From a virus (Duplodnaviria; Caudoviricetes): a DNA stretch of 36,506 nucleotides. Each line of letters starts with the position of its first letter. The stretch's first letter is position 1. The notes under the pieces are model-generated. The model was not told the origin of the DNA. It ran no database searches and saw only the letters and a program-made list of their open reading frames with translations. The stretch covers positions 1 to 36,506 of IMG/VR virus record IMGVR_UViG_3300020045_006155. The stretch is one strand, 5' to 3'. The translations under genes and the position numbers were made by a program. Below are positions 675 through 34,264 of this stretch, piece after piece.

Positions 675-742
675 TAAAACCTAACTGTGTTTCTGTTTTT
701 TCCATAGCATTATTGATTATTTTGGTAGGTGCCTAATTCTAG

Positions 743-988
743 TTATGCGACTACTGGCCTAATAGTATTTATATACGCATCATATCCTTTGTTAATTGTT
801 ACGACCCCTTTTTCAGTACGGATTATAAAATCAATTCCATCATGATCAAGTACCCCTTTTGTTGGCCCCACCCACATGTTAGGATTTTCTACGCTAAAAT
901 ACACATTAGTGCCTATTGCGATTGCTCCATATGCGTTGTGCATAACAGTGCGCTCAACCGGAGCGCGGTCGTTTGGTTCTTTGTTCAT
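743..988 (-). CDS. Hypothetical cassette protein (MNKEPNDRAPVERTVMHNAYG...)
   Basis: 3' part of ORF 743..1150; ATG at 988 is preceded by GGAG inside attC 940-1028; stop TAA lies in GTTATGC at 742-748. Confidence 0.65.
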   Translation of the reverse strand: MNKEPNDRAPVERTVMHNAYGAIAIGTNVYFSVENPNMWVGPTKGVLDHDGIDFIIRTEKGVVTINKGYDAYINTIRPVVA

Positions 989-1028
989 ATTGTCTCCTGG
1001 GCCGAGCCCGGTTAGCTTTGCGTTAGGC
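940..1028 (+). mobile_element. attC site (type 1)
   Basis: GCATAAC-agtgcg-CTCAACCGG...CCGGTTAG-ctttgc-GTTAGGC; the extra C in L'' (CTCAAC vs GTTAG) fixes the top strand as +. Confidence 0.88.
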
Positions 1029-1199
1029 ACCAAGTTTTTTGTCACCAATGCGCTTAATAGTTTGCCGAAAACCACACCACTTACACCAAAGCTGTGTATC
1101 TCCTTCAGGATAAATTGGGGGAGCATAATGCCAATTGTAGCGATGGGCAATTCGCATTAATGGCCTGTAAAGCCATCTGTAAAATAGCGTTTTAATCAT
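1023..1199 (-). CDS. Small hypothetical cassette protein (MIKTLFYRW..., CxxC)
   Basis: Part of ORF 1023..1247; stop codon falls in R' of attC 940-1028; the frame is open back into attC 1205-1301. Confidence 0.6.
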   Translation of the reverse strand: MIKTLFYRWLYRPLMRIAHRYNWHYAPPIYPEGDTQLWCKWCGFRQTIKRIGDKKLGA

Positions 1200-1204
1200 G
1201 TGTT

Positions 1205-1301
1205 GTATAACTCTTAGTTCAAGCGGACAAGCCGCCATGTAGCGCATTTGCGCGGTTAAAGTTCAGTGTGTGGCGGCTTTCCGCTTAACACGGCGTTAGC
1301 G
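1205..1301 (+). mobile_element. attC site (type 2)
   Basis: GTATAAC-tcttag-TTCAAGCGG...CCGCTTAA-cacggc-GTTAGCG; same box layout as classical aadA-type attC. Confidence 0.9.
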
Positions 1302-1803
1302 CATCAACACCGCTCACCATCCCGGTCTGTGGCGTATATACCGCGCTCGGCGCATACCCGCCTTGTGCCACGCGCAGCCAGCCCTCGTAACTAGCACCTT
1401 CGTTGCCAAATGCACTTGCGTTGTTGTCCGTCAACCACCGCGCCAGTTCTTCAGCCGTCTCAAAAGCGGGGCTTATTGGCGTGCCTTCACTGGTGTTCTC
1501 GTACAGCATAAGGTGCGTTCGCTGTTCTGCCGGCCAGTCTGGCATGTAGTCGTCGCGGTGCGGGCGCTGGCCTGCCCACTGCTCGTAGCACATTGCGCGG
1601 CTCTCCGCATCGTCGCAGTAGTCGGGCCTCCATCCTGCTTTCCACTTGGCGCATTCTTCGTCCCACTCATCCACTCTTGGCTTGTAGTCCTCGCCCGGAT
1701 ACAGCGGCTTGTAGAACTCCCCCATGCTCCCGGTGCGCCAGTCGTGTTTCTGTTCTTTCGGGTGTTGCCAGTTGGCCGGTACGCGCCTTACTTCTCTTCC
1801 CAT
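1285..1803 (-). CDS. Phage-type hypothetical protein, cassette-borne
   Basis: 172-aa GC-rich ORF MGREVRRVP...; reads through R' and stops at TAA in L' of attC 1205-1301. Confidence 0.8.
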   Translation of the reverse strand: MGREVRRVPANWQHPKEQKHDWRTGSMGEFYKPLYPGEDYKPRVDEWDEECAKWKAGWRPDYCDDAESRAMCYEQWAGQRPHRDDYMPDWPAEQRTHLMLYENTSEGTPISPAFETAEELARWLTDNNASAFGNEGASYEGWLRVAQGGYAPSAVYTPQTGMVSGVDALTPC

Positions 1804-1926
1804 CGTCGTCTCTTTAAAATGCTCTCTAAATAATCAATCAACCCGGACGTTCCGAGTTTTCAATTCGTACTTTCTTGGTCATGTGTTATTTCCTATCAGT
1901 TATGCCGAGCTTTGTTTAGGGTAGTC

Positions 1927-1995
1927 GGCTAACCCTACGCTCAAGGTGACGCTTCGCCGCTATCGCGGCTCGCGCACCTTAGCTCTGCGTTATAC
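1927..1995 (+). mobile_element. attC site (short)
   Basis: GGCTAAC-cctacg-CTCAAGGTG...CACCTTAG-ctctgc-GTTATAC with a central GC hairpin. Confidence 0.88.
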
Positions 1996-2619
1996 CCCAA
2001 AGTCCCGGCACTTGATTTTCGTAATAATCCGGTGGCCGTTTCGTGTATTTAGTTCCGTCTTGGGCCTCGCCACAATCCCTTCCGCCTGAAATTCGCCCCA
2101 CGTCGAAATAATCCCGGTCTTCGCCGCTGCGATTGCATCATGCAGCGTTCCTTCCCCGATGATCGGAACTATGTCAACCCCAAGTTTATGCGCCACATCC
2201 TCAACGTCTGCGCGTTGTAGCCACCAGTCGCCCACTTTCACGTCAAACAACACAAAGTCTTGGTCTTGCCGGTAGTTGCCTCCGCCTTTCTGAATCTTCG
2301 CGCCGTAGCCCTCCCCGTAGAGGCAAGCGTCACAACCAAACACATCTTGTATCTTCTCCGCCAATGGTAAAAACTTTTCGTTTAGGCGTGTCACCAGTTG
2401 CGCCGGTATCTGCGCTGAGTCCGTTTTCCCGCCAAATGTAATCCCTCCGCCCTGCGACATCACGCGGATGTTGGTTCCATCGACCTTCTCGGTAAAAACC
2501 CAAGTGTTTCCGGCAAGGAATTCAAACTCTGGAAGTGTCCATTGACCTTCCAAAAGCGTCTTTCCGTTGTGCTCCATATCGCGTTTAAAAAGCGTTTGTA
2601 TCTTGGGGTACTCTTTCAT
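1990..2619 (-). CDS. ATP-dependent RNA ligase (Rnl2-like adenylation domain only), cassette-borne
   Basis: Nucleotidyltransferase motifs EKVDGTN (I), LYGEGYG (III), FVLFDV (IIIa), EGIVARP (IV), KIK (V); stop in R' at 1990. Confidence 0.85.
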   Translation of the reverse strand: MKEYPKIQTLFKRDMEHNGKTLLEGQWTLPEFEFLAGNTWVFTEKVDGTNIRVMSQGGGITFGGKTDSAQIPAQLVTRLNEKFLPLAEKIQDVFGCDACLYGEGYGAKIQKGGGNYRQDQDFVLFDVKVGDWWLQRADVEDVAHKLGVDIVPIIGEGTLHDAIAAAKTGIISTWGEFQAEGIVARPKTELNTRNGHRIITKIKCRDFGV

Positions 2620-2644
2620 TTTTTACTCCGTAGTTGGGTTTGTT

Positions 2645-2740
2645 GTATAACTCTTAGTTCAAGCGGACAAGCCGCATTTAGCGCATGTGCGCGGTTAAAG
2701 TTCTTCGTGTGGCGGCTTCCCGCTTAACACGGCGTTAGGC
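2645..2740 (+). mobile_element. attC site (type 2, near copy of 1205-1301)
   Basis: GTATAACTCTTAGTTCAAGCGGACAAGCCGC...GCGGCTTCCCGCTTAACACGGCGTTAGGC. Confidence 0.9.
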
Positions 2741-2953
2741 CGCACATTGAAAACATCTGGTTACTATCCCAACAAATACACCGCGCGCTATATTTGCCGT
2801 CGATTTTCTATTCCGCTTTTGGATGCTGCAAGACCTCCAAAACTTTAGTTTTCTGGCAGTACGTGCAACACTCCAAAAAACACGGTCAATTTCCTTCGCA
2901 GATGTTTTTAATGTGCGGCCTAACCCATCATTCAACGCGACGCCGTTGAGCAT
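2735..2953 (-). CDS. Small basic hypothetical cassette ORF starting inside attC
   Basis: 72-aa ORF; N-terminus MLNGVALNDGLG is the antisense reading of attC 2918-3005; stop in R' at 2735. Confidence 0.4.
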   Translation of the reverse strand: MLNGVALNDGLGRTLKTSAKEIDRVFWSVARTARKLKFWRSCSIQKRNRKSTANIARGVFVGIVTRCFQCAA

Positions 2954-3005
2954 CGCGGTATTGTTTAAAATTCATCGCACGGCGCCCGCTTAACAGGCGT
3001 TAGCA
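2918..3005 (+). mobile_element. attC site (type 3)
   Basis: GCCTAAC-ccatca-TTCAACGCG...CGCTTAA-caggc-GTTAGCA; centre gtattgtttaaaat is shared with 19574-19658. Confidence 0.8.
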
Positions 3006-3202
3006 CTCATGGCTTCAGCATCACCCACCATCTGCCCGATCTTCCACGGCCCGATGTTCGCGCCGAAGAAGAGTTTTTCTGCGGGTATCGGTTCTTTTGC
3101 TAACGGCGGCAGCAATTGAAACTGGTAGTGGCAAAGCAGTTTTCCAGATTGCCAGCATTCCCGCGCCATTGTTGCCGGGTTGTCATAGATGCAAACTGCC
3201 AT
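2990..3202 (-). CDS. Hypothetical cassette protein (MAVCIYDNPATMARECWQ...)
   Basis: Part of ORF 2990..3238; stops in L' of attC 2918-3005. Confidence 0.6.
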   Translation of the reverse strand: MAVCIYDNPATMARECWQSGKLLCHYQFQLLPPLAKEPIPAEKLFFGANIGPWKIGQMVGDAEAMSANAC

Positions 3203-3205
3203 GAT

Positions 3206-3250
3206 TTTTAACTTCACATTCCCCGACTTCGGAGGCAATTTGCGTTACAC
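3206..3250 (+). mobile_element. Collapsed/degenerate attC
   Basis: TTTTAAC...GTTACAC only 45 bp apart; the flank left of AAC is partly complementary to the cassette start at 2999 (tcatggc...gcatc). Confidence 0.5.
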
Positions 3251-3481
3251 GGCTTCAATGTATATTTCAATGCTAAATCCATCGCCATGATACTCAAGCT
3301 GCACAGCAGATGATGAACATGGCACTGCTTGCCAGTTGTAACAAGGTAACAATGAGGCAATTTCTTTTGCCTTTAATACTGCCATTTTGTTGATTGGAAC
3401 GCCGTCATAGCCATCCCAGCGCCTGGGAAGATTTAAAAAGCTATCTAGTCTGTCATTAATGGAATTTATTTCGATATTCAT
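3245..3481 (-). CDS. Hypothetical protein (MNIEINSIND...WDGYDG)
   Basis: Part of ORF 3245..3532; GGAG precedes ATG 3481; stop in GTTACAC. Confidence 0.65.
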   Translation of the reverse strand: MNIEINSINDRLDSFLNLPRRWDGYDGVPINKMAVLKAKEIASLLPCYNWQAVPCSSSAVQLEYHGDGFSIEIYIEAV

Positions 3482-3560
3482 TACAAATATGCTCCTGTAT
3501 TTGTTTTTAGATACATTTAGACAATTACGCAATGTTTTACGACTATTAGGATGGCTAATT

Positions 3561-3755
3561 CTAGTTATGTTTCACAAGCCCGCAGCTAAATTCTGGCTTT
3601 ATTCCATTTTGCGGTTCAAATGCACCGTGCTTATCTACGCAAGACTTGCAGCGCGTTATCTCACGGTCAGGCGTTGGCGGGTATCCTGAGTAAACCATTT
3701 TCCATGCGCTACCCGGCGCATGGTTGTGAAACTTTCCGCAACAATCGCAATTCAT
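3561..3755 (-). CDS. Small Cys-rich (Zn-binding-like) cassette protein
   Basis: 64 aa with CDCC...CKSC; GGAG RBS; bounded by 12-bp complementary cassette ends. Confidence 0.7.
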   Translation of the reverse strand: MNCDCCGKFHNHAPGSAWKMVYSGYPPTPDREITRCKSCVDKHGAFEPQNGIKPEFSCGLVKHN

Positions 3756-3774
3756 GGTATCTCCGTATCGTGAA

Positions 3775-3865
3775 ACATAACTTTCCGCTCAAGCGGGACG
3801 CGGTGAACGGCATGGTTTTTCAATCGGAGCTTGGGAGCGCCGCGCCCCTTAGCTCCACGTTAGAA
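3775..3865 (+). mobile_element. attC site
   Basis: ACATAAC-tttccg-CTCAAGCGGGACGCGG...CCGCGCCCCTTAG-ctccac-GTTAGAA. Confidence 0.88.
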
Positions 3866-3898
3866 CTCATCCCGTTAGGGCTGCCCATCACTTCCACG

Positions 3899-4150
3899 TT
3901 AGTCATAAACAACTTCTATCGTTATTTTCACTTTTTTATACAAAATATTTGACATCGCCATGATATCGTGCCTAGCAAATCCGGTGAGTTTTATAAAAAC
4001 TTGTGGGCGTATCTCTACTAGCAATCCTCTTTCAAATTCTTCTAAATCTCCCATTTCAACAACACTTCCAGAATATTCCATAATGTATAATCCGTCATTC
4101 AACGTAGACCCGCCGACCTGCGGCGGTTTCGTAGTTTCGCTTGTGTTCAT
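3899..4150 (-). CDS. Hypothetical cassette protein (MNTSETTKPPQVGGSTLNDGLY...)
   Basis: Part of ORF 3899..4186; GAGG RBS and ATG 4150 lie inside attC 4085-4203; stop in GTTAGTC at 3898. Confidence 0.65.
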   Translation of the reverse strand: MNTSETTKPPQVGGSTLNDGLYIMEYSGSVVEMGDLEEFERGLLVEIRPQVFIKLTGFARHDIMAMSNILYKKVKITIEVVYD

Positions 4151-4203
4151 AATTCCTCGCTTTGTTAAATGGCCGTGCCGCGCCAATTACCAGGGTGTTA
4201 TAC
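4085..4203 (+). mobile_element. Degenerate attC site
   Basis: GTATAAT(AAC>AAT)-ccgtca-TTCAACG...GTTATAC; right arm is poorly paired. Confidence 0.6.
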
Positions 4204-4383
4204 ACCAAGATTCCTAGCTAATTGCCTACATAGGCTGCTTGCTTCGCAGATACGAGAATAGACATCATGTAGAAGGTGGGCCATGCATTGATATTTGTCT
4301 AATTCCGGTAAGTTTAATTTTCCTGACAACATTAATAAAATTTTTCTATCTTCTGGATTTAAGTTTTCATGCCACATATTCAT
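4198..4383 (-). CDS. Hypothetical protein, paralogue of 19653..19838
   Basis: MNMWHENLNPEDRKI... conserved in both copies with mostly synonymous changes. Confidence 0.75.
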   Translation of the reverse strand: MNMWHENLNPEDRKILLMLSGKLNLPELDKYQCMAHLLHDVYSRICEASSLCRQLARNLGV

Positions 4384-4565
4384 AAATTCATATCCTTAAG
4401 AGATTTTCTTATTAATGGCGCTATTTCATCCCACAAATCAACGTTAACTAGCATTTTAATGCTGACATTGGCGGCCATACTATCAAACATTTCAACAACA
4501 AATAGCAAGTCCATTGTATCATCGTCAATACACTCAAACCGCGTTGGATATATTTTAGTGCTCAT
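4380..4565 (-). CDS. Hypothetical protein, paralogue of 19835..20020
   Basis: YPxRFEC...VNVxLWDEIAPLIR conserved in both copies; 4-bp overlap with the next gene. Confidence 0.75.
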   Translation of the reverse strand: MSTKIYPTRFECIDDDTMDLLFVVEMFDSMAANVSIKMLVNVDLWDEIAPLIRKSLKDMNL

Positions 4566-4626
4566 TGTAATACCACAATTTTGATAATGTAGCTGGCCGC
4601 AAAATAGCCAGCTACGATAAAAAACT

Positions 4627-6249
4627 TTAATAATAATAATAAAAAAATGGCACTGTCACATTGGTGCAAAATAATTCATCCGGGGTTCCAGCTAATCCAT
4701 AGCTGACCGTGAAACCGGCCAGTTGACAGGCTTTTGCTGCTTCGGAAATGACTTGTGGAGGAAAATTAGCAGGACTCCATCGACATGTTGAAGGCCAGCA
4801 CCACGCCAATGTTTTAGGCGGCTCAACTGGAGCCGTACAAACATCAGTGAGTAATTTATTTAACGCAGCAACCGGCTGAATAACGCCACACCTCGCATTG
4901 ACATAACTGTTCTGATTATTAATAACCCAATTAGCTATATTCAACCCGGTGTCAGGAAGGTTAGTTGAGAACACAGGTAATTTAACGGCGGTATCACAAA
5001 GCGCTTTTTTGATTTGATCCGGTGTTGCATGAATTTTTCCTCCTGATTTTAACCGGCACTGATCCTGTAAAATACTCTGAATGGCGTTGCCCTTGTTAGC
5101 TGCCTGTGATGACCCACCGTATTTACCGTCAGCATAAGCGACGGAATCCTGGGATTCACTGTAAAAAACGGGCATATTAGGGTTGCCATCAACGATACTG
5201 ATGCTGCCATCGGCATTAACGACCGGCCTGCTACCGTCCTGAGGGATTACCAGATCAGGGCCATCGGGGCCGTAGCTGGTCGTTTGCTGATAGCCATACA
5301 GGTATTTTTTAACTGCTCCGTAAGTGATGATATTGTCGTCATATGTGTTTGTATCAGCCTTTTGTTTGTTTTTATTGCCGATGGCTTGCGCAATAACGAT
5401 ACCCTTGTCATGGGCTCGTTTAAACGCATTCTTCTCTTTAGCGGATTTGGAGTGATAGTTACCAAACGGTCTACCTATACTGCACTCATCCGCTAGGGTG
5501 CATTTGTCTATAATATCGTTCATGGCCTTCATAGATAGGGCGTGTAGGACATCTTCACCCGAAATTTGCGTTACTTCGAGTCCGATTTTGCCGTAGGATA
5601 ACGACGCGATAGCATTAACCCCCATAGTGCCGTGACTGGTGGTTGTTAATTCGTTAGTGAATTGCAGCGGGGCCTCATTATCAACAAAACTTTTTGCAAT
5701 GATTTTATCGAAATAGCCCGGCAATAATTGATTTTGCCAAACCACAGAGTCAATGGTGTACGCAATGGGTTTTTTATCGTCTGTGGGTAGCAACTTGCTT
5801 TGCAATTCCGTGTAATTAACGCTTGAACCTAGGCCTTTCAAATCATACGGGCCAACTAATGAAAATGTTTTATCATCTTCATCGATGCTATCGAATACCA
5901 GACATGGGGCATTTTCCTCAATAAATAATTTCGCCATAAACAAAACCATATCAAATATGTCATCTTCAATCTCGTCATGAACTGTTGGTAAATTTCGATA
6001 GTATTTTATTGGTGTTGACCATACCTCCAGCTGTGTCCATTGATTTCTGTCCAGATAGAGAATATCTCCGACATAAGGATCAGTGTCAGCCGATATGACA
6101 TACATCCCTTCGGAATTGGCCTGAGTATTAAACTCCTCAGTGGTACAGTTAGGGGCTTTAACGACCCTGATACCGTCAACATTAGCGGCATTAGCATTAG
6201 TGTGAGCGGTTATTGATACCAGCGCTATTAACGCTATTAGTGTTTTCAT
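4627..6249 (-). CDS. Secreted subtilisin-like (S8) serine peptidase, divergent
   Basis: Signal peptide MKTLIALIALVSITAHTNANA; ordered S8 motifs YTIDS (Asp), SHGTMG (His), AIGN (oxyanion Asn), GGSSQAA (Ser); Cys-rich C-terminal tail. Confidence 0.75.
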   Translation of the reverse strand: MKTLIALIALVSITAHTNANAANVDGIRVVKAPNCTTEEFNTQANSEGMYVISADTDPYVGDILYLDRNQWTQLEVWSTPIKYYRNLPTVHDEIEDDIFDMVLFMAKLFIEENAPCLVFDSIDEDDKTFSLVGPYDLKGLGSSVNYTELQSKLLPTDDKKPIAYTIDSVVWQNQLLPGYFDKIIAKSFVDNEAPLQFTNELTTTSHGTMGVNAIASLSYGKIGLEVTQISGEDVLHALSMKAMNDIIDKCTLADECSIGRPFGNYHSKSAKEKNAFKRAHDKGIVIAQAIGNKNKQKADTNTYDDNIITYGAVKKYLYGYQQTTSYGPDGPDLVIPQDGSRPVVNADGSISIVDGNPNMPVFYSESQDSVAYADGKYGGSSQAANKGNAIQSILQDQCRLKSGGKIHATPDQIKKALCDTAVKLPVFSTNLPDTGLNIANWVINNQNSYVNARCGVIQPVAALNKLLTDVCTAPVEPPKTLAWCWPSTCRWSPANFPPQVISEAAKACQLAGFTVSYGLAGTPDELFCTNVTVPFFYYYY

Positions 6250-6366
6250 GTTTTCTCCGGGGTTGTAAATAGGTATTATTTCTTAAATGACTCTAACTAC
6301 TAACTGCAAAGCGCTTTGGTTTTTGGTAGAGCCATTTAAAAATAAGAACCCGTCTTGTGGGTAATA

Positions 6367-6435
6367 CGGTAATCTCCCGAGCCAAAAGGAGGTAGAACTA
6401 ACTACAAACTCGTGATTACTGACAGTGTTTTTCAG
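6367..6435. repeat. Exact 69-bp direct repeat, second copy 7304-7372
   Basis: cggtaatctcccgagccaaaaggaggtagaactaactacaaactcgtgattactgacagtgtttttcag occurs twice. Confidence 0.95.
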
Positions 6436-6450
6436 GCCGGCGGTGTAAAA

Positions 6451-6586
6451 TGGGACGAGGGGAGGGATTCGAACCGCCAACCTCCGCTATGTAAATTAGA
6501 GTTTCCGTGATCAGCGGCCCCTCTAGGGGTACTTTATTCATGACTATTTCCCCCAGCGGCGCTCTAACCAGTTGAGCTACCCCCGT
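6451..6586 (-). tRNA. tRNA-Val(UAC)-like gene with a 59-nt insertion in the anticodon arm
   Basis: Acceptor ACGGGGG/CCCTCGT plus CCCA; D-arm GCTC-AACTGGTTA-GAGC; stem CCGCT/AGCGG; loop remnant TTTACAT; T-arm GGCGG-TTCGAAT-CCCTC. Confidence 0.7.
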
Positions 6587-6589
6587 AAA

Positions 6590-6982
6590 TTAATGGTGCC
6601 CGTACTTAAAAAAGTATCGTCGGGCACGAAGCCAGATTGGGTTTCCTGTGGCATTCTTAACCCAGAAACCCCATCTACGCTTGGTTTTTCCTGTTACAAC
6701 TATCGTCCAACATCCGTTCGTTTTCACGGTATGTTTGTGTTCCGCTTTCCTAAAACGAACCGTGCCAAAAGACATAAACTCTTCGCCCTGTTCGGTCACA
6801 TCGAAATATGAGCCTTTTATAACAAAACAAACAAAATCCCAAGCGTGATCGTGAAAAGCTCTTGGGTCATCCCCGTAAAACCAATGGTGCAACCGGATCG
6901 AAAAGCTATCGTTACCAACCACCCATCTTTGCAAATACGGTTTGCCTTCCTTGCCTAGTTTCTGTCCCCACACGACTTGCAT
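6590..6982 (-). CDS. Phage cupin-fold protein
   Basis: RLHHW...FHDHAWDF...GSYFD...EHKHTV resembles a metal-binding cupin; GGAG RBS. Confidence 0.65.
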   Translation of the reverse strand: MQVVWGQKLGKEGKPYLQRWVVGNDSFSIRLHHWFYGDDPRAFHDHAWDFVCFVIKGSYFDVTEQGEEFMSFGTVRFRKAEHKHTVKTNGCWTIVVTGKTKRRWGFWVKNATGNPIWLRARRYFFKYGHH

Positions 6983-7001
6983 CGAACATTCTCCAATTTT
7001 G

Positions 7002-7224
7002 TAAAGTAGCCAGGATCCTTGCCGTTAAAGGGCTAACGGTAACACGCTGTGGTTTCCAACCGTCGGGGAGCCCGGTACGCCCACACTAAGCCTTTTCCTA
7101 TATCCCAAGCCCGATGCTGCAATCCCCTGGCACCGTCGTCGCTTAAAGCTCTTTGGCTACTTTAGAAAACTCTACAAGGCTGTAGTAATCAATAGCTTGC
7201 AGCCGTCTCGTAGAGTTTTCTAAA
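7002..7224. ncRNA. Candidate structured non-coding RNA(s)
   Basis: Intergenic; 11-bp closing stem 7002-7012/7154-7164 around a GC-rich core, and a 15-bp stem 7161-7175/7210-7224. Confidence 0.4.
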
Positions 7225-7467
7225 ATAAGCCGCCCTCCGGGGTGCGCTGATCTTACGAGAAGCGTAGAGGGTTTTTCAATCACTGTTCGTCTCGTGAACA
7301 ACTCGGTAATCTCCCGAGCCAAAAGGAGGTAGAACTAACTACAAACTCGTGATTACTGACAGTGTTTTTCAGAAACCCCGCACCTCTGCCTGACATCAGG
7401 GTCTGGGATACGCCCAGCTCGTAGTTCCAAACTATGTTAAATATTCTACTCTCATTTAAGCTGTAGG

Positions 7468-7701
7468 TCAAGTGCTATTTGTTAAATGTTTCAAAAGAGT
7501 ATCTATTTCTCGTTTCGGGGCCATGAGCAGTCGGGTATAAATGCGGCGCATTAACCCTGCGCCATGCCGATTCTTTGCGCGGCGCAGTATAGCGCGGTGG
7601 TCACTGCCCAATTCAAAAGCTACGCCCATTTCTACTAGCGTATCCTGAAGTGCATGTAGTTTATCTGGGGGTAGATTAAATATCTGGTTAGCCAGAGACA
7701 T
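7468..7701 (-). CDS. Hypothetical protein
   Basis: 77-aa ORF co-oriented with neighbours. Confidence 0.6.
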   Translation of the reverse strand: MSLANQIFNLPPDKLHALQDTLVEMGVAFELGSDHRAILRRAKNRHGAGLMRRIYTRLLMAPKREIDTLLKHLTNST

Positions 7702-7827
7702 AGACGTACCCCCGCAATAATATTATCGCCCAGATAAAAAACGATGCCCATAACGCGGACAGTGCTCCGTATATCCACCACAGCATGAATACTTTACGAG
7801 ATTTTTTAAGTTGCATTAGCGGCCCTT

Positions 7828-8193
7828 TTATACGCTATTTCCCAGGTATTTATCTGATTTTTGTGCTCTGAGCATCAGTTTATACCCGCCAAAGAGGAGT
7901 CCTGGAAGTTCGCATGAGTATTCTTTAAGCGTTTCGATGCAGTCTTCAATCATACTACCATGACTCCAGCAGACGCATTTAATGCTATCAGTAGTGTAAC
8001 TTCTAAGACTCAGGCACCGAGCGCACGTCTTGTAGCTTGTAATCGCTCCATCCCACTTTGCCGAAACGTGCTCGTATTTCTCTTTAATAGCTATTAACCC
8101 ATAACACTCATCGCATCTGTGGGTTTTGCGGGCAGTTCTTATTGTAGCCACATAAAATTCTGGCTGCTCCCAATCACAATCGCATGGCATCAT
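7828..8193 (-). CDS. Cys-rich phage protein (probable Zn-binding)
   Basis: RTARKTHRCDEC...KTCARC pattern. Confidence 0.7.
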   Translation of the reverse strand: MMPCDCDWEQPEFYVATIRTARKTHRCDECYGLIAIKEKYEHVSAKWDGAITSYKTCARCLSLRSYTTDSIKCVCWSHGSMIEDCIETLKEYSCELPGLLFGGYKLMLRAQKSDKYLGNSV

Positions 8194-8221
8194 TTACCCT
8201 CTTTCGTAAAGCCTACTGATT

Positions 8222-8741: not shown

Positions 8742-8763
8742 TAATTCCTCTCTTTAATTTTTA

Positions 8764-12625: not shown

Positions 12626-12728
12626 AACTCTTCACCTACCGAACATTTAGGTTACTGAACAAAAAGGATTGCGAGCAACAGGTGTTCAGGCTGCTTTTGG
12701 CCGCTAAGCCTAGCTCGCAAATTTGGTT

Positions 12729-13781: not shown

Positions 13782-14082
13782 TTATTAGCTCCGAATAAAA
13801 AAAATAATAGTATACCGTATTTCGTATACCGTTGCGTAGCGGTTGCTATCTAAAATAGCCTCTTCTGTCCTGGATCCAGGAACCAGTCTATCCAGATATG
13901 GCAAGTTTTTGAAGAACAATATTTTTTGTTTAGTGAAGTGAAAAGCCCCAGGTTTTCGCTTCCGCAACGGGGGCATTTTTTAGTTGTTACCTTAACGGGA
14001 TCTTTTCTTTTTGACATACTTCCCCTTCGGCCACGCCAAAATAAGTGCGAGGGCCATTAAAAACAAGACATCGCCGAAATGG

Positions 14083-14391
14083 TCAAAATGTATTAGTGTC
14101 AGGAGCATAATATTTCACCTGGATATAGTAGAGTAATTTGTCTATTTTATCCTTAGTGTCACACATAAAGCATTCGAATCCTAGGGTACGCAATCGGATA
14201 AATGCGCGTTTTTGAGCCGCCCTAAGATCTTTTCCAGGGCGTTTCGTTTCGACAAAAAGGCAAACTGCATTGGGCAGCAAGCAAATTCGATCTGGCTCAC
14301 CCCGACGAATTTCGTACTTATGGATCTGAGCATCAGGGAACTGTCGTTTAAAAGAACCGACTAGATGCTCTTCAACAGTTGCTTCCTTCAT
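14083..14391 (-). CDS. VRR-NUC domain nuclease
   Basis: MKEATVE...GEPDRICLLP...FVETKRPGK...Q; standard partner of the SNF2 helicase in these phages. Confidence 0.85.
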   Translation of the reverse strand: MKEATVEEHLVGSFKRQFPDAQIHKYEIRRGEPDRICLLPNAVCLFVETKRPGKDLRAAQKRAFIRLRTLGFECFMCDTKDKIDKLLYYIQVKYYAPDTNTF

Positions 14392-14484
14392 TAACGGTAT
14401 ATCCGGCACAGCAGGAGCGCTACTAGGTATACCAGCGCCATCAGTTCTACGCCGTGCTTGAATGTGTCCCAAATTTCTGGCATA

Positions 14485-14667
14485 TCATTTCTCCGAATTT
14501 ATTTTAAAATCGCAGGTGTCCAATAGCGGGAGTATTAGCGTATTGACGTAGGAGTAAACGCGCATCGGATCGTCCAGCGGGATTGTCAAGAAGCGTTTAC
14601 ACGATTCTTTCTCACCGCATCGATAGCCGTAGCACCGGGTTATATCAGAATATAAGGGCCTACTCAT
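14485..14667 (-). CDS. Small Cys-rich hypothetical protein
   Basis: DITRCYGYRCGEKESCKRF; part of ORF 14485..14700. Confidence 0.55.
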   Translation of the reverse strand: MSRPLYSDITRCYGYRCGEKESCKRFLTIPLDDPMRVYSYVNTLILPLLDTCDFKINSEK

Positions 14668-15277
14668 AGAAAGCAGCCTCCCCCGTATAGGGCAAAACAT
14701 CGCGAAAGATAAGCCGTATCGCGTTAGCGATATCTCTATGCTCTTTTTGGGTATATCTTTCCGAGCGCAATCGCGAAAAATGAATCCAGCTTCGGATAGA
14801 TCCAGTCATATATAATCGAGTCGTTGCCGTTTCCAACAACAAAAATCTAGCGCATTCTTTCGATACCCCGACGGCCAGAGCGAAACGATACGCTGTGAAA
14901 GATAGCCACTGCATAACTTTTTGGGTAGCTCTAAACACCCAATTCTTGAAAGGCGATAACGGGGTCTCTGAGGATTGTCTTTCTTTAACCCCTGGCATCC
15001 GGCCATCGTAGGTTTCGAAACTACACGCCTCTGCGTACCGTTGGCTGAACTCCGAGAAGACAAACGAACGATGCCGCAATATTTGCCGTCCTATAGTCCT
15101 CGAGGTGGTTATCTCAATCGTCATGTGCGCATGCTCGAACACTGACCAATGCCCTCGGCGAATACAAGAGCCGAGTAATTCAGTTTTTCCCGAAGTTTGG
15201 TCGTTACTGGATACCCGAGCAATATAGAGCATAGTTTGCTCAGCATCAGGGGTGAGCGCAATTAGTCTTACTTGCAT
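14660..15277 (-). CDS. thyX: Flavin-dependent thymidylate synthase
   Basis: GHWSVFEH, RQILRHRSFVFSEFSQRY (RHRx7SxR), ECAR, TQKEHR. Confidence 0.93.
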   Translation of the reverse strand: MQVRLIALTPDAEQTMLYIARVSSNDQTSGKTELLGSCIRRGHWSVFEHAHMTIEITTSRTIGRQILRHRSFVFSEFSQRYAEACSFETYDGRMPGVKERQSSETPLSPFKNWVFRATQKVMQWLSFTAYRFALAVGVSKECARFLLLETATTRLYMTGSIRSWIHFSRLRSERYTQKEHRDIANAIRLIFRDVLPYTGEAAFYE

Positions 15278-15488
15278 TATCTACCTCATTTGCCTCTGAA
15301 TTTTAAAGTATTTCGGTATTCACCGATTTCGCGTAAGCGCTCTAAACGTGCTTTTTGTGAAGCGTCCTTTTCAGGGGACACCAATGTAAATAGCCGCATC
15401 CACGGACTGCGTTTTTTAGGGGGATTGGACATTATTTCTCCTGATAAATATACGTTACTAGTATAGCATATGCTAGGTGAATTATCAA

Positions 15489-17687
15489 TTATTTGTGGTA
15501 AGCGTAATCGCTAAAGCCTTCAGCGGCCAGCGGAATGCCTTCCGCCCACGGCGGTACAGTTGCCATGATCTTTTCCAGGTGCTGAACAGAATATTCCTCG
15601 GTATCGGGTACTTCACAAACTAATTCATCGTGGACGGGCAGGATAACGTTATAGCCTTGTCGTTCAGCTTCTAGCTGGCCGTACTTAAAAATATCACGGG
15701 CTAAAGCCTGTGTTGCATTTTCCACCAGCTTTCCTGCGAAAGTTTCTATCCAGCCCCACTTTTTAGTAAACTGGTTAACACCCTTAAATCGCAATTTCCC
15801 TTCGTGTATCTCCATGCCCGGATAACAGAGCGAATGCCCACTCGGTAACACCATACGCACCCATTTTCCGGTTCGTCTAGCGTAACAATTATTCCCAAAA
15901 TAAAAATTCTTATTGGGTATTTCCACGGCATTTCTACAAGCCGCTTCAGTATCAGCCCACAGTTTGACCGTCGCGGGGTGTTCCCGACGCCATAGCCGTT
16001 TCAAGCTGTCACACACTGTAAAAACATCGAAGTCCAAGTATATCGTTCGTTTACGATCCATGTGTTGCAGCCATGACTTAGGGGTGTCCGTCTTTTCAGC
16101 TTTTTTTCTAGCGTCTTTAATGTCTTGCTCTTCTAGCCACCCATAGAAGCTGATAGCTTCGTCCATAATACTTTTAGGGATACTGCTCTTGGCTAAACTA
16201 ACTAAATCTTCCAGGTTAACACCCACCGATGTCGCAAAAGTGATGAACGCGGATACGCCCCCATGATAGCCCATACTCAGTTCCAAAGGCTTACCGATTC
16301 CGTTTCGTTGCTCTTTAGTAACGTTATCCGGTAGGACGTTAAATGCTTTTGCATACGCTAATTTATATAAATCTGATCCTATCCCGGCATCGTATTCCCG
16401 GTAAGCTTGTAACTTCCATTCTTCCCCCGCTAGAAAGGCCAAAACTCGACCCTCGATACCGGCTAAATCCGAGATCAGTAGTTTCTTACCTACCGGGGCG
16501 GTGATTGTGTAACGTAACGCGGACTGTGTTAGCCACATCACATCCAGATTGAAAATTTCTTCTAACCCCTGTTTTAATGCTTCGATGCCAAATTTAGTAT
16601 CGTCTATATTCATTAATCCCCGCGAGGGGAGATTTTGCGGTTGGAATCCATTAGTACCGGCATCTCTCAGTGTTCTGGATGCGCCTGCGAATTTTATAGT
16701 CCCTCGTAATCTACCATCTTTTGAAGTTGCTTGTACCATACGCTTATACTTAGCCGTTGACGTAGTACAAGTGCTTAATCGCACTTCTAATAGATCGCGT
16801 AACGCAGGGGGTGTCTCTTCATCTTCTATCAGGCGATTTAGGGTTGCTTTTTGCATATTTGGCAGCTCTAGCCCATACTCTGCCAGAATATGCTTTAGCA
16901 TTTCATCGCGTTGGGAAGCGTTATCCACTGCGCCATTTGTCATCGCTTTAGTCGAGCAGGATAACTGCGCTTGCGCCGTCGATATGGCGTTCATAGCCCC
17001 TTGGACTAATTTCAGATCAATATTCATGCCGCGATTATTGACGCGCTGATCCATCCGCCATAACTCGACCTCATGCGCGTTACCTGGGTAATTCCATTTC
17101 GGGATTTTCTTAACAATCTCGCGCATGGCCTCGGTGTCATTTACGCAATAGTCTTTGTACCGCGCCCAATCTTCAGGGTGGGTTTCCGGTGTGTTCCATC
17201 TGTATGTGATCCCGTCTTTCAGATAGCCGCAAGGTTTGCAAAATAATCTCACCAAGCGGTGTCCATCTATTATCTTCTTAGCGTCCTCCCGGATGCCTAG
17301 CACTTCGCCTAGTTTTTCTAATCCTCCCGGTAGCCCATGCGATAGAGCCTGCGCCATTGAGCACTGAAAACGCTCGATGCTTAGATCCCAGTCTTTCTTG
17401 CGGCGCGATAACCGGCGAAGATGCGGCTTGGTAGCTATTAAAACGGAACGGTCAAAAAATACGTTATGGAATTGTAAAATCACTGACGGATCTTCTAAGG
17501 CACTTTCCAATTCTTCCGGCATTATTTCACCATCTTCAGGACTCCAGATTTGTACGGGGTCGTCATTCCGCGCAAAAGAAAAAAGCTGAACCCTTGTAGA
17601 AGGATGTTCAGCATATTTCGCGGTGCCAGCGGATTTTAAGTCACATTCGCTTTTTGTTTCTGTGTCTGACCATAGAATATCGGGCAT
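15489..17687 (-). CDS. Phage family A DNA polymerase with 3'-5' exonuclease
   Basis: DTET (ExoI), YCVND, QPQNLP, DLAGIEGR (motif A), RNGIGKPLELSMGYHGG (B), VHDELV (C). Confidence 0.95.
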   Translation of the reverse strand: MPDILWSDTETKSECDLKSAGTAKYAEHPSTRVQLFSFARNDDPVQIWSPEDGEIMPEELESALEDPSVILQFHNVFFDRSVLIATKPHLRRLSRRKKDWDLSIERFQCSMAQALSHGLPGGLEKLGEVLGIREDAKKIIDGHRLVRLFCKPCGYLKDGITYRWNTPETHPEDWARYKDYCVNDTEAMREIVKKIPKWNYPGNAHEVELWRMDQRVNNRGMNIDLKLVQGAMNAISTAQAQLSCSTKAMTNGAVDNASQRDEMLKHILAEYGLELPNMQKATLNRLIEDEETPPALRDLLEVRLSTCTTSTAKYKRMVQATSKDGRLRGTIKFAGASRTLRDAGTNGFQPQNLPSRGLMNIDDTKFGIEALKQGLEEIFNLDVMWLTQSALRYTITAPVGKKLLISDLAGIEGRVLAFLAGEEWKLQAYREYDAGIGSDLYKLAYAKAFNVLPDNVTKEQRNGIGKPLELSMGYHGGVSAFITFATSVGVNLEDLVSLAKSSIPKSIMDEAISFYGWLEEQDIKDARKKAEKTDTPKSWLQHMDRKRTIYLDFDVFTVCDSLKRLWRREHPATVKLWADTEAACRNAVEIPNKNFYFGNNCYARRTGKWVRMVLPSGHSLCYPGMEIHEGKLRFKGVNQFTKKWGWIETFAGKLVENATQALARDIFKYGQLEAERQGYNVILPVHDELVCEVPDTEEYSVQHLEKIMATVPPWAEGIPLAAEGFSDYAYHK

Positions 17688-17754
17688 ATTTTCTTGATAT
17701 CTAGTATGTTATTTGTGAGGGGGAATGAGTGGGGTGCGTTTGGTAAATCGGCAT

Positions 17755-18135
17755 CTACGTACTCCTGCTCTTAGTCAGCGCTTCCAAGAATTCGCGCACC
17801 CTCGGCATCACGTATTTGTCGCGCACACGCTCAACAACACAGCAACTTCCGTTGTGACGCTCCTCCCATCGGCGACAGCGCCACTTGTGAGTTTCCAGTT
17901 CCTGGCTAAATCGATAGGTGTTCCACTCGATGTTCATACCGCCATCCCATCGCCAAGACCAGTCCGCTGCCATCTCGTGTTCTTCGAGCGCCATCAGTTC
18001 CGCGTCTGATCTATCTACCAGTCTAGTCAGCACCTCGTTAACATCTTCCACTGTCACAGCAACCATTTCATTCTCCTTTTTCGTCTCCGGCATAACTCGG
18101 CGCTCAACCGGAGCGCGGTTATAATCTTCGTTCAT
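17755..18135 (-). CDS. Hypothetical cassette protein starting inside attC
   Basis: N-terminus MNEDYNRAPVERRVMP is the antisense reading of attC 18090-18178. Confidence 0.7.
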   Translation of the reverse strand: MNEDYNRAPVERRVMPETKKENEMVAVTVEDVNEVLTRLVDRSDAELMALEEHEMAADWSWRWDGGMNIEWNTYRFSQELETHKWRCRRWEERHNGSCCVVERVRDKYVMPRVREFLEALTKSRST

Positions 18136-18178
18136 TATTCACTCTTCAGGGCCGCGCCCGGTTAGCTTTGCGTTATAC
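18090..18178 (+). mobile_element. attC site (type 1, same family as 940-1028)
   Basis: GCATAAC-tcggcg-CTCAACCGGAGCGCGG...CCGCGCCCGGTTAG-ctttgc-GTTATAC. Confidence 0.9.
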
Positions 18179-18335
18179 ATATCGAAACAGGCAGGTAGGG
18201 GATCGAACCCTGACAACGCACTTCGTTCATGACCCCGCGCGCCGCCTTGCAAATGCCGCCATCCGGCCTACTTCGCACAAATCGTATGCATCCAACTTGT
18301 GTCCAATAGTTGCTACCTGCTTCGATATGTATAAC
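18172..18335 (-). ncRNA. Apparently non-coding cassette with tRNA-like T-arm and acceptor-like stem
   Basis: 15-bp complementary ends; minus strand GCAGGT...AGGG-TTCGATC-CCCT-ACCTGC; no convincing minus-strand start codon. Confidence 0.45.
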
Positions 18336-18403
18336 CCATCATTCAAGCCATCACCGCCATGCAATCCTCATTAAGCAGCTTTATTGTCATGTATAACCCT
18401 TCG

Positions 18404-18580
18404 CTAGTCTTCATCAGCTACAATCACAATAGACATATTTATAGGGTCTAAATATGCCGATACAGGCCGACCTGATTCATCTGTCACAATGCTTGATTGG
18501 TCAGCTTGCTTTAGTATTGCAACCATGTCGGCAACTGAATTTTTTTGGAATTCTTGCGTTGTTGTTACTGTTTCGTTCAT
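18404..18580 (-). CDS. Hypothetical 58-aa cassette protein (not in the ORF track)
   Basis: MNETVTTTQEFQKNSVADMVAILKQAD...; GAGG RBS supplied by the left arm of attC 18582-18666. Confidence 0.55.
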   Translation of the reverse strand: MNETVTTTQEFQKNSVADMVAILKQADQSSIVTDESGRPVSAYLDPINMSIVIVADED

Positions 18581-18581
18581 T

Positions 18582-18666
18582 TATAAACCCTCATTAAAGC
18601 AGACATGTAGCGCATTTGCGCGGTTAAAGTTCAGTGGGCGGTTTCCCGCTTAACACGGCGTTAGTC
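18582..18666 (+). mobile_element. attC site (type 2 centre and right arm, degenerate left arm)
   Basis: Shares catgtagcgcatttgcgcggttaaagttcagtg and ccgcttaacacggcgttag with 1205-1301. Confidence 0.75.
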
Positions 18667-18675
18667 ATTGCAGTC

Positions 18676-18951
18676 TCAGTATGCTTTACGCTCAAGGCGC
18701 TTTGCAATTCTTTTAACAAGGTCTTGCGCAGGCCATTGGAACCTATCATAGCTCTTGTCCTGTCCGTAACGCCCGTCATGATACGTTGCATACTCAAGCA
18801 AGGTCATGCACTCAGAAAGAAGTGCATAATATGCGGTTTCTTCCGGCTCCGATAGGCATTCTTCTATTTCATTAATTAGACTATCTGGTAAATCTGACAT
18901 TTCGACCATATGGTCAATAACTCTTTTAAGCAACTCTCTTTCTTTACTCAT
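18676..18951 (-). CDS. Hypothetical protein (MSKERELLKR...)
   Basis: 91-aa ORF between attC-derived boundaries. Confidence 0.7.
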   Translation of the reverse strand: MSKERELLKRVIDHMVEMSDLPDSLINEIEECLSEPEETAYYALLSECMTLLEYATYHDGRYGQDKSYDRFQWPAQDLVKRIAKRLERKAY

Positions 18952-18956
18952 TTTTT

Positions 18957-19151
18957 TTAATCCTTCTGGCAGCTCCCGGTTAGCTCTGCGTTATACATAA
19001 ATATCAATCTATATCTCAATCGCTCAGCTCTGGCTGTTAATTTCTTTTGAGCATGGCAAGGCTTGCCGCGATAGCCTTTATCGCCTATGCGCTTCGCTCC
19101 CCATTCGATCCCTTGATCTATTTGGCTTTTATGTCGCGTTGTTTTACTCAT
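18957..19151 (-). CDS. Small basic hypothetical protein
   Basis: C-terminus YNAELTG is read-through of an attC right arm (18975-18996). Confidence 0.6.
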   Translation of the reverse strand: MSKTTRHKSQIDQGIEWGAKRIGDKGYRGKPCHAQKKLTARAERLRYRLIFMYNAELTGSCQKD

Positions 19152-19189
19152 TTTTTACCTTGAGCGCCCGGTTAGCTCTGCGTTAGGCA

Positions 19190-19537
19190 TCACTGAATAC
19201 GCTCTGTGCGGCCACCGTGGCGCAGAACTTCACCGCGCTCGCCAATGGTCACATGCGCGTCGTCGTACTGGCGCAGCGCCTTCTTCACGGCGGTTTCGGC
19301 GTTGTTCCGGTAGGCATCAAACTCGGCTTGCAGGCGCTTCAACTTGTCGGCGGCCTCGCGCTCAATGTCGCCCATGCGGTCGCTCCACGGCGGCGAGTAG
19401 AACGCCATGCCATAGTGTTCGTGCCCACCTTCTGCACCGCCTGCCAAGCACTCCAATTGCTCGGGCGTCAGCTTCAGGTCGCACTCGGCAGCGGCTTCGG
19501 CGATGCAGTCTTTCCAGTAGTCTTTGTGTGCGGTCAT
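19190..19537 (-). CDS. Hypothetical cassette protein (GC-rich)
   Basis: 115 aa, GAGG RBS; bounded by 13-bp complementary ends GTTAGGCATCACT/AGTGATGCCTAAC. Confidence 0.75.
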   Translation of the reverse strand: MTAHKDYWKDCIAEAAAECDLKLTPEQLECLAGGAEGGHEHYGMAFYSPPWSDRMGDIEREAADKLKRLQAEFDAYRNNAETAVKKALRQYDDAHVTIGERGEVLRHGGRTERIQ

Positions 19538-19573
19538 GTTTCCTCGCTTCGGTAAAAGTGATGCCTAACTAAT

Positions 19574-19658
19574 GTATAACCCGTCATTCAAGCCGACGCT
19601 CTAAGCATCGGCGTATTGTTTAAAATCCGTTCCGGCGCAGCTTAATTTCGCGTTATGC
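19574..19658 (+). mobile_element. attC site (type 3)
   Basis: GTATAAC-ccgtca-TTCAAGCCGACGC...GCGCAGCTTAA-tttcgc-GTTATGC. Confidence 0.88.
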
Positions 19659-19838
19659 ACCAATATTCATAGCTAATTGCCTACATAGGCTACTTGATTC
19701 ACAAATGCGAGAATAAACATCATTAAGAAAATGCGCCATGCTTTGATATTTATCTAATTCCGGTAAGTTTAATTTTCCGGACAACATTAAGAAAATTTTT
19801 CTATCTTCTGGATTTAAGTTTTCATGCCACATATTCAT
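19653..19838 (-). CDS. Hypothetical protein, paralogue of 4198..4383
   Basis: Near-identical protein; stop in R' at 19653. Confidence 0.75.
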   Translation of the reverse strand: MNMWHENLNPEDRKIFLMLSGKLNLPELDKYQSMAHFLNDVYSRICESSSLCRQLAMNIGA

Positions 19839-20020
19839 AAATCCATGCCCTTAAGGGCTTCTCGTATTAATGGCGCTATTTCGTCCCACAGCTCAACGTT
19901 AACTAACGTTTTAATGCTGATGTTGGCCGCCTTATTATCAAACATTTCTACAATAAATAGTAAATCATCTGTTTCATTATCCACACACTCAAACCGTATT
20001 GGATACATTTTCATGCTCAT
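19835..20020 (-). CDS. Hypothetical protein, paralogue of 4380..4565
   Basis: Part of ORF 19835..20032; aligns with 4380..4565. Confidence 0.75.
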   Translation of the reverse strand: MSMKMYPIRFECVDNETDDLLFIVEMFDNKAANISIKTLVNVELWDEIAPLIREALKGMDL

Positions 20021-20079
20021 TGTATACACCATTTTGATAATGTAGCTGGCCGCGAAATAGCCAGCTACGATAAAAAATA

Positions 20080-20373
20080 TTAATAATAGTAAAAAAAAAA
20101 AAAAAAAAAAACGGCTCCGTTACATTAGTGCAAAATAATTCATCCGGGGTTCCAGCTAATCCATAGCTGACCGTAAAACCGGCCAGTTGGCAAGCTTTTG
20201 CGCCTTCGGAAATGACGTGTGGCGGAAAATTAGCAGGACTCCAACGACAGGTAGATGGCCAGCACCAGGCCAATGTTTTAGGCGGTTCAACTGGAACCGT
20301 ACAAACGTCTGTTATTGTCGGCATTAACTGCCGTTGAAATAATAAACAATAGCCATAAAAAATATTTAGTCAT
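20080..20373 (-). pseudogene. Internally deleted subtilase paralogue
   Basis: GGAGG plus signal peptide MTKYFLWLLFIISTAVNA joined out of frame to TDVCTVPVEPPKTLAWCWPSTCRW..., the C-terminal tail of 4627..6249; A21 tract at 20091-20111. Confidence 0.7.
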
Positions 20374-20444
20374 GATGATGTCCTCCTGTTGATTGTTGCA
20401 TATAAAGCATTTGCGATTGATCCTGAATTTGAACCGGCTTGGCA

Positions 20445-20714
20445 TTAGCCACCAACCTTCACCCAGCCCCGGCGCGTCACCTGATACTGCGTTCCGTCCG
20501 CCATCGTCTTGATTTCGCCTTCGCCGTGCAGCTCCACCGTTACCGGCTGCTCGGCAAGATTCGCCAGTTCTTTCATTTGGCGCTGGCTCACTTCAGCCAT
20601 GTCCTCGTACAAAAACGATTTGCCATCGGTAAACTCGGCCTGTCCAAGCATATTCTCCATGAATTCTTTGGCCAGCGGGTTTGGGGTGTTGTTAAAGCTA
20701 ATGCTCATTTTCAT
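20445..20714 (-). CDS. Hypothetical cassette protein
   Basis: 89 aa, GGAG RBS; ends TTAGCCAC/GTGGCTAA are complementary. Confidence 0.7.
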   Translation of the reverse strand: MKMSISFNNTPNPLAKEFMENMLGQAEFTDGKSFLYEDMAEVSQRQMKELANLAEQPVTVELHGEGEIKTMADGTQYQVTRRGWVKVGG

Positions 20715-20733
20715 GCTCCTGTGGTTATGCCGT

Positions 20734-20797
20734 GGCTAACACGGCGTTCTAGCGGGACTGTCCGCAAGCGGCCAGCCCCTAAACTTTGCCGTTATAC
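20734..20797 (+). mobile_element. attC site (short, 64 bp)
   Basis: GGCTAAC-acggcg-TTCTAGCGGGACTG..CCGCAAGCGG..CAGCCCCTAAA-ctttgcc-GTTATAC. Confidence 0.8.
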
Positions 20798-34235: not shown

Positions 34236-34264
34236 CAGGGTGCCTTTAGTTGTGCCGTTCAGAT

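Follow-up and report, generated by a model that had tools for sequence, protein, structure and literature searches.

Integron-type arrays in a phage genome with host-like recombination sites and cargo genes on the opposite strand

Introduction

Integron cassettes have so far been treated as a bacterial pool whose genes lie on the top strand of attC, and the occasional antisense cassettes that are known carry their own promoter, for example toxin-antitoxin pairs in Vibrio arrays. A preliminary description of the IMG/VR virus record IMGVR_UViG_3300020045_006155 (Caudoviricetes; 36,506 bases, estimated to be 39% complete), the whole of which is referred to here as the window, reported two clusters of attC-like sites (array 1, 731-4203; array 2, 18090-20797) with all cargo antisense to the sites and no integrase. 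How does a phage come to carry such inverted cassettes, and which enzyme moves them? We find arrays in which the attI and attC sites are of host type and keep the standard polarity, and in which the cargo lies on the opposite strand. The explanation that we favour, at somewhat better than even odds and from comparative sequence evidence, is that the integron integrase (IntI) encoded in the chromosome of a probable Methylobacter-type host recombines the cassettes at G|TT. Arrays of this kind are a real, widespread integron variant with standard sites, reversed genes, host-type attI and an enzyme that probably acts in trans.

Results

The attC sites are of host type and standard polarity

The preliminary description had counted 11 full or near-full attC-like sites with + as their top strand, and both statements held. 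A covariance model (CM) recovered nine full sites, all with the bottom strand on the - strand, and two further sites (4085-4203 and 18581-18666) were near-full. The model was built from the bottom strands of 33 attC sites of bacterial integrons and arrays, chosen from 67 candidates against redundancy, with the structure set by hand. It scored the nine sites at 25-75 bits on the - strand, against a maximum of 20.4 bits on the + strand, and at 9/9 sites the - strand outscored the +. All nine carry R'' and R' boxes with the conserved AAC/GTT and complementary L'' and L' boxes, and the extrahelical base lies on the L'' arm, in the position seen in the host. A separate box scanner found six strict sites on + and none on - (mean 0.33 over 30 shuffles). 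Folding energy by itself does not settle polarity.

The attC motif shared with bacteria occurs at no fewer than 141 loci in about half of the bacterial genome collection; 71/80 of the matches listed fall in Methylococcales-labelled records, and the bacterial arrays with this motif have the textbook layout, with intI divergent. GenBank phages contained no match to the site at 1205. By the CM, six same-strand attC less than 4 kb apart lie in array 1 and three in array 2, the spacing used to recognise clusters of attC sites lacking integron-integrases (CALINs). Besides the 11 sites there are one decayed site, three half-sites (18329, and right arms ending at 18996 and 19188) and, at 30 and 3243, bare G|TT junctions; the arrays are partly eroded.

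Array 1 contains attI sites

Two short sites near 731 and 3553 had been taken for attC in the preliminary description. Comparison with host attI ruled them out as collapsed attC. One is a Methylobacter-type attI (3527-3570, +, crossover G3564|T3565), identical at 35/41 positions to the attI beside intI in loci L050 and L070, with a position weight matrix (PWM) score of 23.8 against a shuffle maximum of 13.8. The other (727-748, +, crossover G742|T743) follows the host attI pattern, which gave 0 hits in 100 shuffles, and shows a 7/7 complement to R'' at 940. As its PWM score of 13.6 was equalled by 1/20 shuffles, we regard it only as a probable attI core. With attI at 742 and 3564, array 1 would consist of two sub-arrays. 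In two units (30-742 and 3243-3564) the closing site is an attI in place of an attC, and the left neighbours of the two sites, a DNA methyltransferase (MTase) gene and a small open reading frame (ORF), are both cargo-type. An attI of the window type also heads reversed arrays in other viral records (5/16 records examined, the window included).

Cargo genes lie on the attC bottom strand

The claim that every ORF between the sites lies on the - strand stands for the genes with homologues or family hits, of which 7/7 are on - (MTase, ORF 1285, RNA ligase, ORF 3561, ORF 3899, ORF 17755 and phrog_21617). It does not extend to every unit: 1899-1933 is empty, 18172-18335 is tRNA-like, and 2734-2924 has a - strand ORF without a homologue. 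These calls rest on homology because assigning the longest ORF is noisy, giving three antisense, two sense and three ambiguous units in the window. By the longest-ORF rule, sites in viral records were 70 antisense, 23 sense and 33 ambiguous, against 15, 101 and 20 in bacterial ones (Fisher p 1e-20, the sites not being independent and the rule miscalling high-GC loci, L187 probably among them).

The same polarity was seen when loci were fetched by cargo protein and not by site. In a first set, 46/46 CM hits had the bottom strand on the coding strand (12/25 loci, the 12 including two duplicate pairs), and in a second, 12/12 hits had it on the coding strand of the anchor gene (6/41 loci). The attC family of site 1205, which occurs twice in array 1 and comprises 35 sites with 26 cargo families, gave 24 antisense, 8 ambiguous and 3 sense calls. 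An in-frame bottom-strand ATG was present in the loop of the main host-type attC in 16/27 viral versus 5/142 bacterial copies (four sites from suspected prophage contigs, two of them with the ATG, were kept apart), and three window ORFs start within an attC, at 988, 4150 and 18135. None of 17 cargo proteins was matched by PADLOC.

Shared cassettes are bounded at G|TT

Comparison with other phages bore out the proposed breakpoints: for the MTase, RNA ligase and phrog_21617 cassettes alike, the homology starts at G|TT. Homology of the MTase unit to viral locus L322 (78% nucleotide identity) begins exactly at the G|TT junction. The RNA ligase cassette is 85% identical to L331 over exactly 1987-2651, from R box to R box, and 71% identical to L239, while the 82% nucleotide identity of phrog_21617 to L202 starts in the right arm of the site on its left, in the G|TT region, and continues through to R''. 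The shared cassette bodies, bounded by R boxes, were found in unrelated phages. A backbone block is present at both 4197 and 19652 (86% identity over 663 nt), each copy starting at G|TT behind a different site, and a 35-bp remnant, which forms the start of the unit at 3243 and recurs at 20791, likewise begins at G|TT. Cassette ends were 7/7 complementary in 6/11 window units versus 0/10 within sites, and in 57/99 versus 23/99 across viral loci. That the same unit turns up in different surroundings, delimited by G|TT and complementary R boxes, suggests that the reversed cassettes are mobile.

A search with PolA (13 loci) yielded one close relative, in the complete 87.8-kb genome G001, whose backbone is syntenic with the window. 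In G001 there were 0 attC matches, and neither a tyrosine recombinase nor a counterpart to any of the cassette genes was present. Since the two phages diverged, therefore, either the window lineage has acquired both arrays or G001 has lost them.

Source of the integrase

Phage-type cassettes were found antisense in host chromosomal integrons, as the preliminary description had anticipated. In the integron of L042, beside leuS and of the TIGR02249 type, the two cassettes nearest to attI run antisense (L042:6949-7518), with a phage-type attC on the right of each. L050 and L080 hold one such cassette apiece (L050:10617-10904, L080:5039-5323), likewise inside Methylobacter arrays, with PHROG hits 'endolysin/tail' and 'pyrophosphatase' that we interpret as LysM-like and MazG-like. 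These cassettes are the strongest genomic sign that host IntI may insert reversed cassettes in standard polarity.

The preliminary description had further proposed that the phage has no integrase and uses a host IntI in trans. The record has no PF00589 match or tyrosine recombinase, array 2 has no intI within over 15 kb on each side, and no intI lies adjacent to an attI anywhere in the record. The window thus possesses the attI of a complete integron, and differs from one in intI and in ORF strand. Absence from the phage as a whole is not established, since the record is partial and cut at its left end, and the position of intI in two other phage records, G043 and G044, corresponds to the DNA missing left of coordinate 1. 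Action in trans gains from the host-type attI in the window and from complete phages: G005 and G034 have a host-type attI, reversed attC and no IntI over cut-off, and G002 combines reversed sites with the absence of any tyrosine recombinase. The available text of one source describes attI sites as co-evolved with, and specific to, their cognate integrase (PMC8946536). Given this specificity and these complete phages, a host enzyme is the best reading.

Several observations weigh against it. Array 1 reaches the contig end where an intI would lie. IntI over cut-off was present in 2/47 hand-picked records with reversed sites (2/12 near-complete ones), at the position matching the missing DNA, and both records, G043 and G044, share the RNA ligase cassette of the window. 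A PWM scan found no recognisable attI in array 2 or at its left, and the host integrons come from metagenome-assembled genomes. Pfold reached 0.1 or more in only 4/9 sites and was below 0.01 in 4/9, and constrained folding favoured the bottom strand in only 5/9. Many sites in the arrays are decayed and the MTase carries a frameshift. Finally, one body can have a different attC of its own in different phages (L331, L202, homologues of ORF 1285), for which simple G|TT shuffling is insufficient; sites must therefore also have been exchanged at R'', through top-strand events, homologous recombination or repeated cassette formation.

The cut end of array 1 raises the alternative that the same reversed cassettes are served by the phage's own IntI, encoded just left of coordinate 1, the whole forming a complete integron of the phage in which the cargo is reversed and intI is transcribed along with it. 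This is the layout of G043 (L445:14449-18344) and G044 (L444:5131-10824 with L240), where cargo, attI and intI follow one another on one strand at the end of long reversed arrays, with standard attC geometry, and a third viral record bears IntI as well (L187:4620-7256), again co-oriented with the cargo of a long reversed array and situated at its end. We consider it unlikely for the window: 10/12 near-complete records have no IntI over cut-off, the window attI sites match host chromosomal attI and have an MTase and a small ORF to their left, and G001 has no tyrosine recombinase. A phage integrase follows IntI in G044 and L187.

Breakpoints at G|TT itself, an attI kept at 85% identity to host attI, and antisense cassettes directly after a host attI are difficult to reconcile with a second alternative, in which the arrays are relics. 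Here homologous or illegitimate recombination would have brought in blocks of other phages, with the sites surviving mainly as short homologies and translation starts and not as present-day substrates of IntI. The half-sites and deletions, the low pfold of 5/9 sites and the frameshifted MTase would fit such an origin, as would the loose linkage between a body and its own attC and the cargo homologue loci without sites (12/24 and 35/41). Overall we find it distinctly improbable.

The exchange of sites also bears on a third account, that in the phage the sites recombine mainly on the top strand, so that an attC and its right-hand gene would form the working unit and the polarity would be functionally ordinary. 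According to the available part of Nivina et al. 2016 (PMC5027507), the top strand recombines infrequently, and cassettes are inverted when it does. Shared bodies have an R box at either end, so that the swapping of sites, and perhaps even the inversion itself, may stem from occasional events on the top strand. The extrahelical base, however, is in the host position, the attI and intI of G043 and G044 have standard geometry relative to attC, and in host arrays the phage-type site lies on the right of the antisense body. The MTase likewise has a single attC family on its right in 6/6 listed loci (five distinct loci, found by that motif) and varying sites on its left; across all loci, the comparison of left and right attC linkage to shared bodies yielded only five viral pairs. 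We accordingly give this account very little credence, and retain the host enzyme as the preferred reading.

Organization of array 1

Array 1 forms the far end of the leftward region, and its left side runs off the contig. The N6/N4 DNA methyltransferase unit (30-674, -; PF01555/phrog_67) has the G|TT junction at 30 as its left end, a one-base frameshift near 418, and the attI-like site at 742 closing it on the right. An 81-aa ORF (743-988, -) without a homologue found has a stop codon that is the reverse complement of the R box, and its ribosome binding site (RBS) and ATG lie inside the attC at 940-1028 (+, 65.5 bits), which is of the Methylobacter chromosomal-integron type and carries the shared motif; the same start is called in the protein collection. 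A 59-aa ORF with no homologue seen (1023-1202, -) precedes the attC at 1205-1301 (+, 33.4 bits), whose family is tied to antisense cargo. The following cassette encodes a 172-aa phage protein (ORF 1285; 1285-1803, -) with 24 viral homologue loci, 12 of them with reversed attC and several with complementary R boxes framing the gene; ESM Atlas returned only unnamed viral clusters for it.

A decayed attC (1823-1905, +), read from the sequence and giving no CM match, is followed by the empty 35-bp unit (1899-1933), which has no ORF, and by the attC at 1927-1995 (+, 42.4 bits, pfold 0.5). The body of the Rnl2-like RNA ligase cassette (1989-2651, -; ORF 1990-2619, PF09414) leads to an attC (2645-2740, +, 38 bits) that is 93% identical to 1205-1301. 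The cassette at 2734-2924 is possibly non-coding, with 15-nt complementary ends and an interior fold of z -3.3; a homologue search with its - strand ORF (2735-2953) found none. After the attC at 2918-3005 (+, 25.4 bits), a unit with a 78-aa ORF (3243-3481, -) starts at a bare G|TT junction and is closed by the attI at 3564. The 64-aa Cys-rich ORF 3561 (3561-3755, -) has homologues in L223 and L204 and 12-nt complementary cassette ends; its attC (3775-3865, +) scores 48.7 bits with a low pfold of 3e-5. The 83-aa ORF 3899 (3899-4150, -) is 87% identical in nucleotides to L447, where its homologue is accompanied by a similarly long site. It starts inside the long near-full attC at 4085-4203 (+), which has a degenerate L', was missed by the CM and marks the right end of array 1. 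Beyond it lies the first copy of the duplicated backbone block (4197-4848), with two 61-aa ORFs, a hairpin and the 3' end of a secreted S8-like gene.

Protein P0124 of the collection, on a 17-kb contig of a close relative, is a one-residue variant of ORF 3899-4150. L447 belongs to a complete phage (G049) whose reversed-type sites form two distinct clusters and occupy both strands. Positions 1-28 of the window, which adjoin an R' box, repeat 1087-1114 exactly in reverse complement, and this match is probably an assembly chimera at the contig end.

Organization of array 2

Array 2 lies directly upstream of the polymerase gene. ORF 17755 (126 aa; 17755-18135, -), with 123 hits including itself, has no recognisable left G|TT boundary, and His/Tyr-Asn stands at the expected reversed R-box position in 46/109 scorable homologues. 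It starts inside a Methylobacter-type attC (18090-18178, +, 75.3 bits, pfold 0.63) with an RBS and ATG built into the bottom strand. The tRNA-like folded cassette (18172-18335, -) has 15-nt complementary ends and an attC of its own reduced to the left arm at 18329; its fold has z -3.2, and 0/200 shuffles fold as well. This ORF-poor unit shows an acceptor-like stem, a T-loop-like arm and two long hairpins. No Rfam family matched it at gathering score, and it has no relative among the fetched loci.

Three small - strand ORFs (18404-18580, 18676-18951 and 18957-19151), for which no homologues were found, occupy 18404-19151 together with a partly deleted attC of the 1205 family (18581-18666, +, 10.6 bits), and the two right-arm half-sites end at 18996 and 19188. 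The phrog_21617 cassette body (19182-19569, -; ORF 19190-19537) has 13-nt complementary ends and is followed by an attC (19574-19658, +, 38.9 bits). In the second copy of the backbone block (19652-20312) the right junction is again G|TT (20311), interrupting a signal-peptide-like ORF. The attC at 20734-20797 (+, 27.1 bits) is the right end of the array. Outside the arrays, the gene at 21110-21370 (-) has a homologue that is an attC-bounded reversed cassette in L198, and it is possibly a domesticated cassette.

Phage backbone

The backbone has a leftward replication module with PolA, DUF2800, an Enc34-type single-stranded DNA-binding protein, an SNF2 helicase, VRR-NUC and ThyX, with the primase oriented rightward, opposite to the module. 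A predicted sigma70-like promoter (25476-25504, -; 11/12 consensus match) heads the leftward replication operon that contains array 2. Promoter scans of the window were near chance overall (19 vs 12.6 and 12 vs 12.8), with no evident cassette promoter (Pc).

A weak attC-like hairpin at 28840-28912 (14.8 bits, opposite strand), situated where the primase unit meets the leftward unit, was rejected as an attC. The ORF beside it (28915-29073) has a homologue within a cassette in L322. An Rfam scan of the window gave one hit, a 133-nt tRNA-like element (6454-6586, -; RF00005, 38 bits) with a long middle insertion, which is 81% conserved in G001 and is flanked by an 85-nt direct repeat (6351-6435, 7288-7372); ARAGORN called no genes in the window, this element included. 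The ORF at 4627-6249 (-) encodes a 540-aa secreted subtilase-like protein (PF00082 under cut-off), and at its position G001 has three unrelated secreted-looking proteins. Recurring 47-66-nt intergenic motifs lie upstream of small early genes in 33954-36310 and are possibly phage promoters.

Discussion

In the explanation we favour, the chromosomal IntI of the host would insert, excise and reshuffle phage cassettes at G|TT, presumably acting as usual on the folded bottom strand. That strand is the coding strand here, and the leftward early operon would read the cargo towards attI, so that the newest cassette would come last, not first, in the transcript. Since many phage attC variants supply an RBS and start codon from the loop, each such cassette would be self-sufficient for translation. 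In a host array a reversed cassette would be antisense to Pc and is therefore predicted to be silent, and because the arrays are partly decayed, their activity may be episodic. A location on the lagging-strand template favours attC folding, as stated in the accessible portion of PMC5371416; the coding (bottom) strand may also be the lagging-strand template, which fits the negative GC skew of the window.

A broader and more tentative proposal, which we regard as possible though short of an even chance, is that phage and host keep two mirror-image cassette pools on one integrase, each cassette being addressed by the orientation of its ORF to its attC. Early operons of the phage would express the reversed cassettes, whose attC sites bring their own translation starts, and chromosomal integrons of the host would store them unexpressed; defence cassettes of the host would in turn stay silent in a phage. 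Host attI sites would be retained by phages as docking points that give access to this pool. IntI cutting at G|T junctions might also make cassettes from phage backbone DNA, as the 4197/19652 duplication suggests.

The data point to a parallel phage pool of opposite polarity, spread across unrelated phages and exchanging with host chromosomal integrons. If true, this would account for a group of chromosomal-array cassettes that are antisense or 'gene-less' and would give phages a site-specific route, through a host enzyme, to swap counter-defence genes (methyltransferase, RNA ligase). Reversed arrays would also be a convenient system in which to ask how cassettes form.

No description of reversed cargo in phage integron arrays was found in the literature searched, most subscription journals lying outside its scope, in agreement with the preliminary description, which knew of none. 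The available text of Qi et al. 2023 (PMC9892861) reports 17 phage CALINs, calls TJE1 and PH101 typical in layout, and describes recombination of five phage attC sites with IntI1; further phages of that study could share the reversed polarity unremarked. In the first 50 kb of PH101 we obtained no significant attC hit.

Among other departures from the textbook arrangement, the Treponema integrons (PMC4889954, available part) have intI flipped relative to attC, whereas here the cargo is flipped and the geometry of attC, attI and, where present, intI is standard. The portion of PMC5027507 available to us states that promoter-facing cassettes are not observed in integrons. Inversion of a whole cassette is meant there; in the phage arrays only the ORF is reversed. 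Off-target insertion at attG sites, in the parts accessible of bioRxiv 10.1101/2022.09.11.507474, could seed arrays and mobilise flanking DNA, and the duplicated block does end at G|T; such insertion leaves ORF orientation relative to attC unflipped, unlike the ORFs of the window. The two window units closed by attI resemble cassettes of the attI-type and delta-attI-type known from class 1 integrons (PMC12901181, as far as its text is available), and differ from them in the phage setting, antisense cargo and non-class-1 attI.

The closest bacterial counterparts are the sedentary chromosomal integrons of Methylococcales (IntI TIGR02249), with which the window shares its attC family, attI type, polarity and G|TT junctions. 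Their cargo is mostly sense; the window lacks intI and an evident Pc, and its cargo is phage-type and read towards attI. Among phages, the likeness is to the CALIN of Tetrasphaera phage TJE1 (PMC9892861, available text), an attC array without intI; like the arrays of the window it carries a DNA methyltransferase, 57% identical to the N-terminal fragment of the window MTase. The three TJE1 sites examined here are all canonical, with the top strand as the coding strand. The reversed phage arrays thus differ from the published phage CALIN that we tested, in their antisense cargo, their host-type attI and the start codons within attC.

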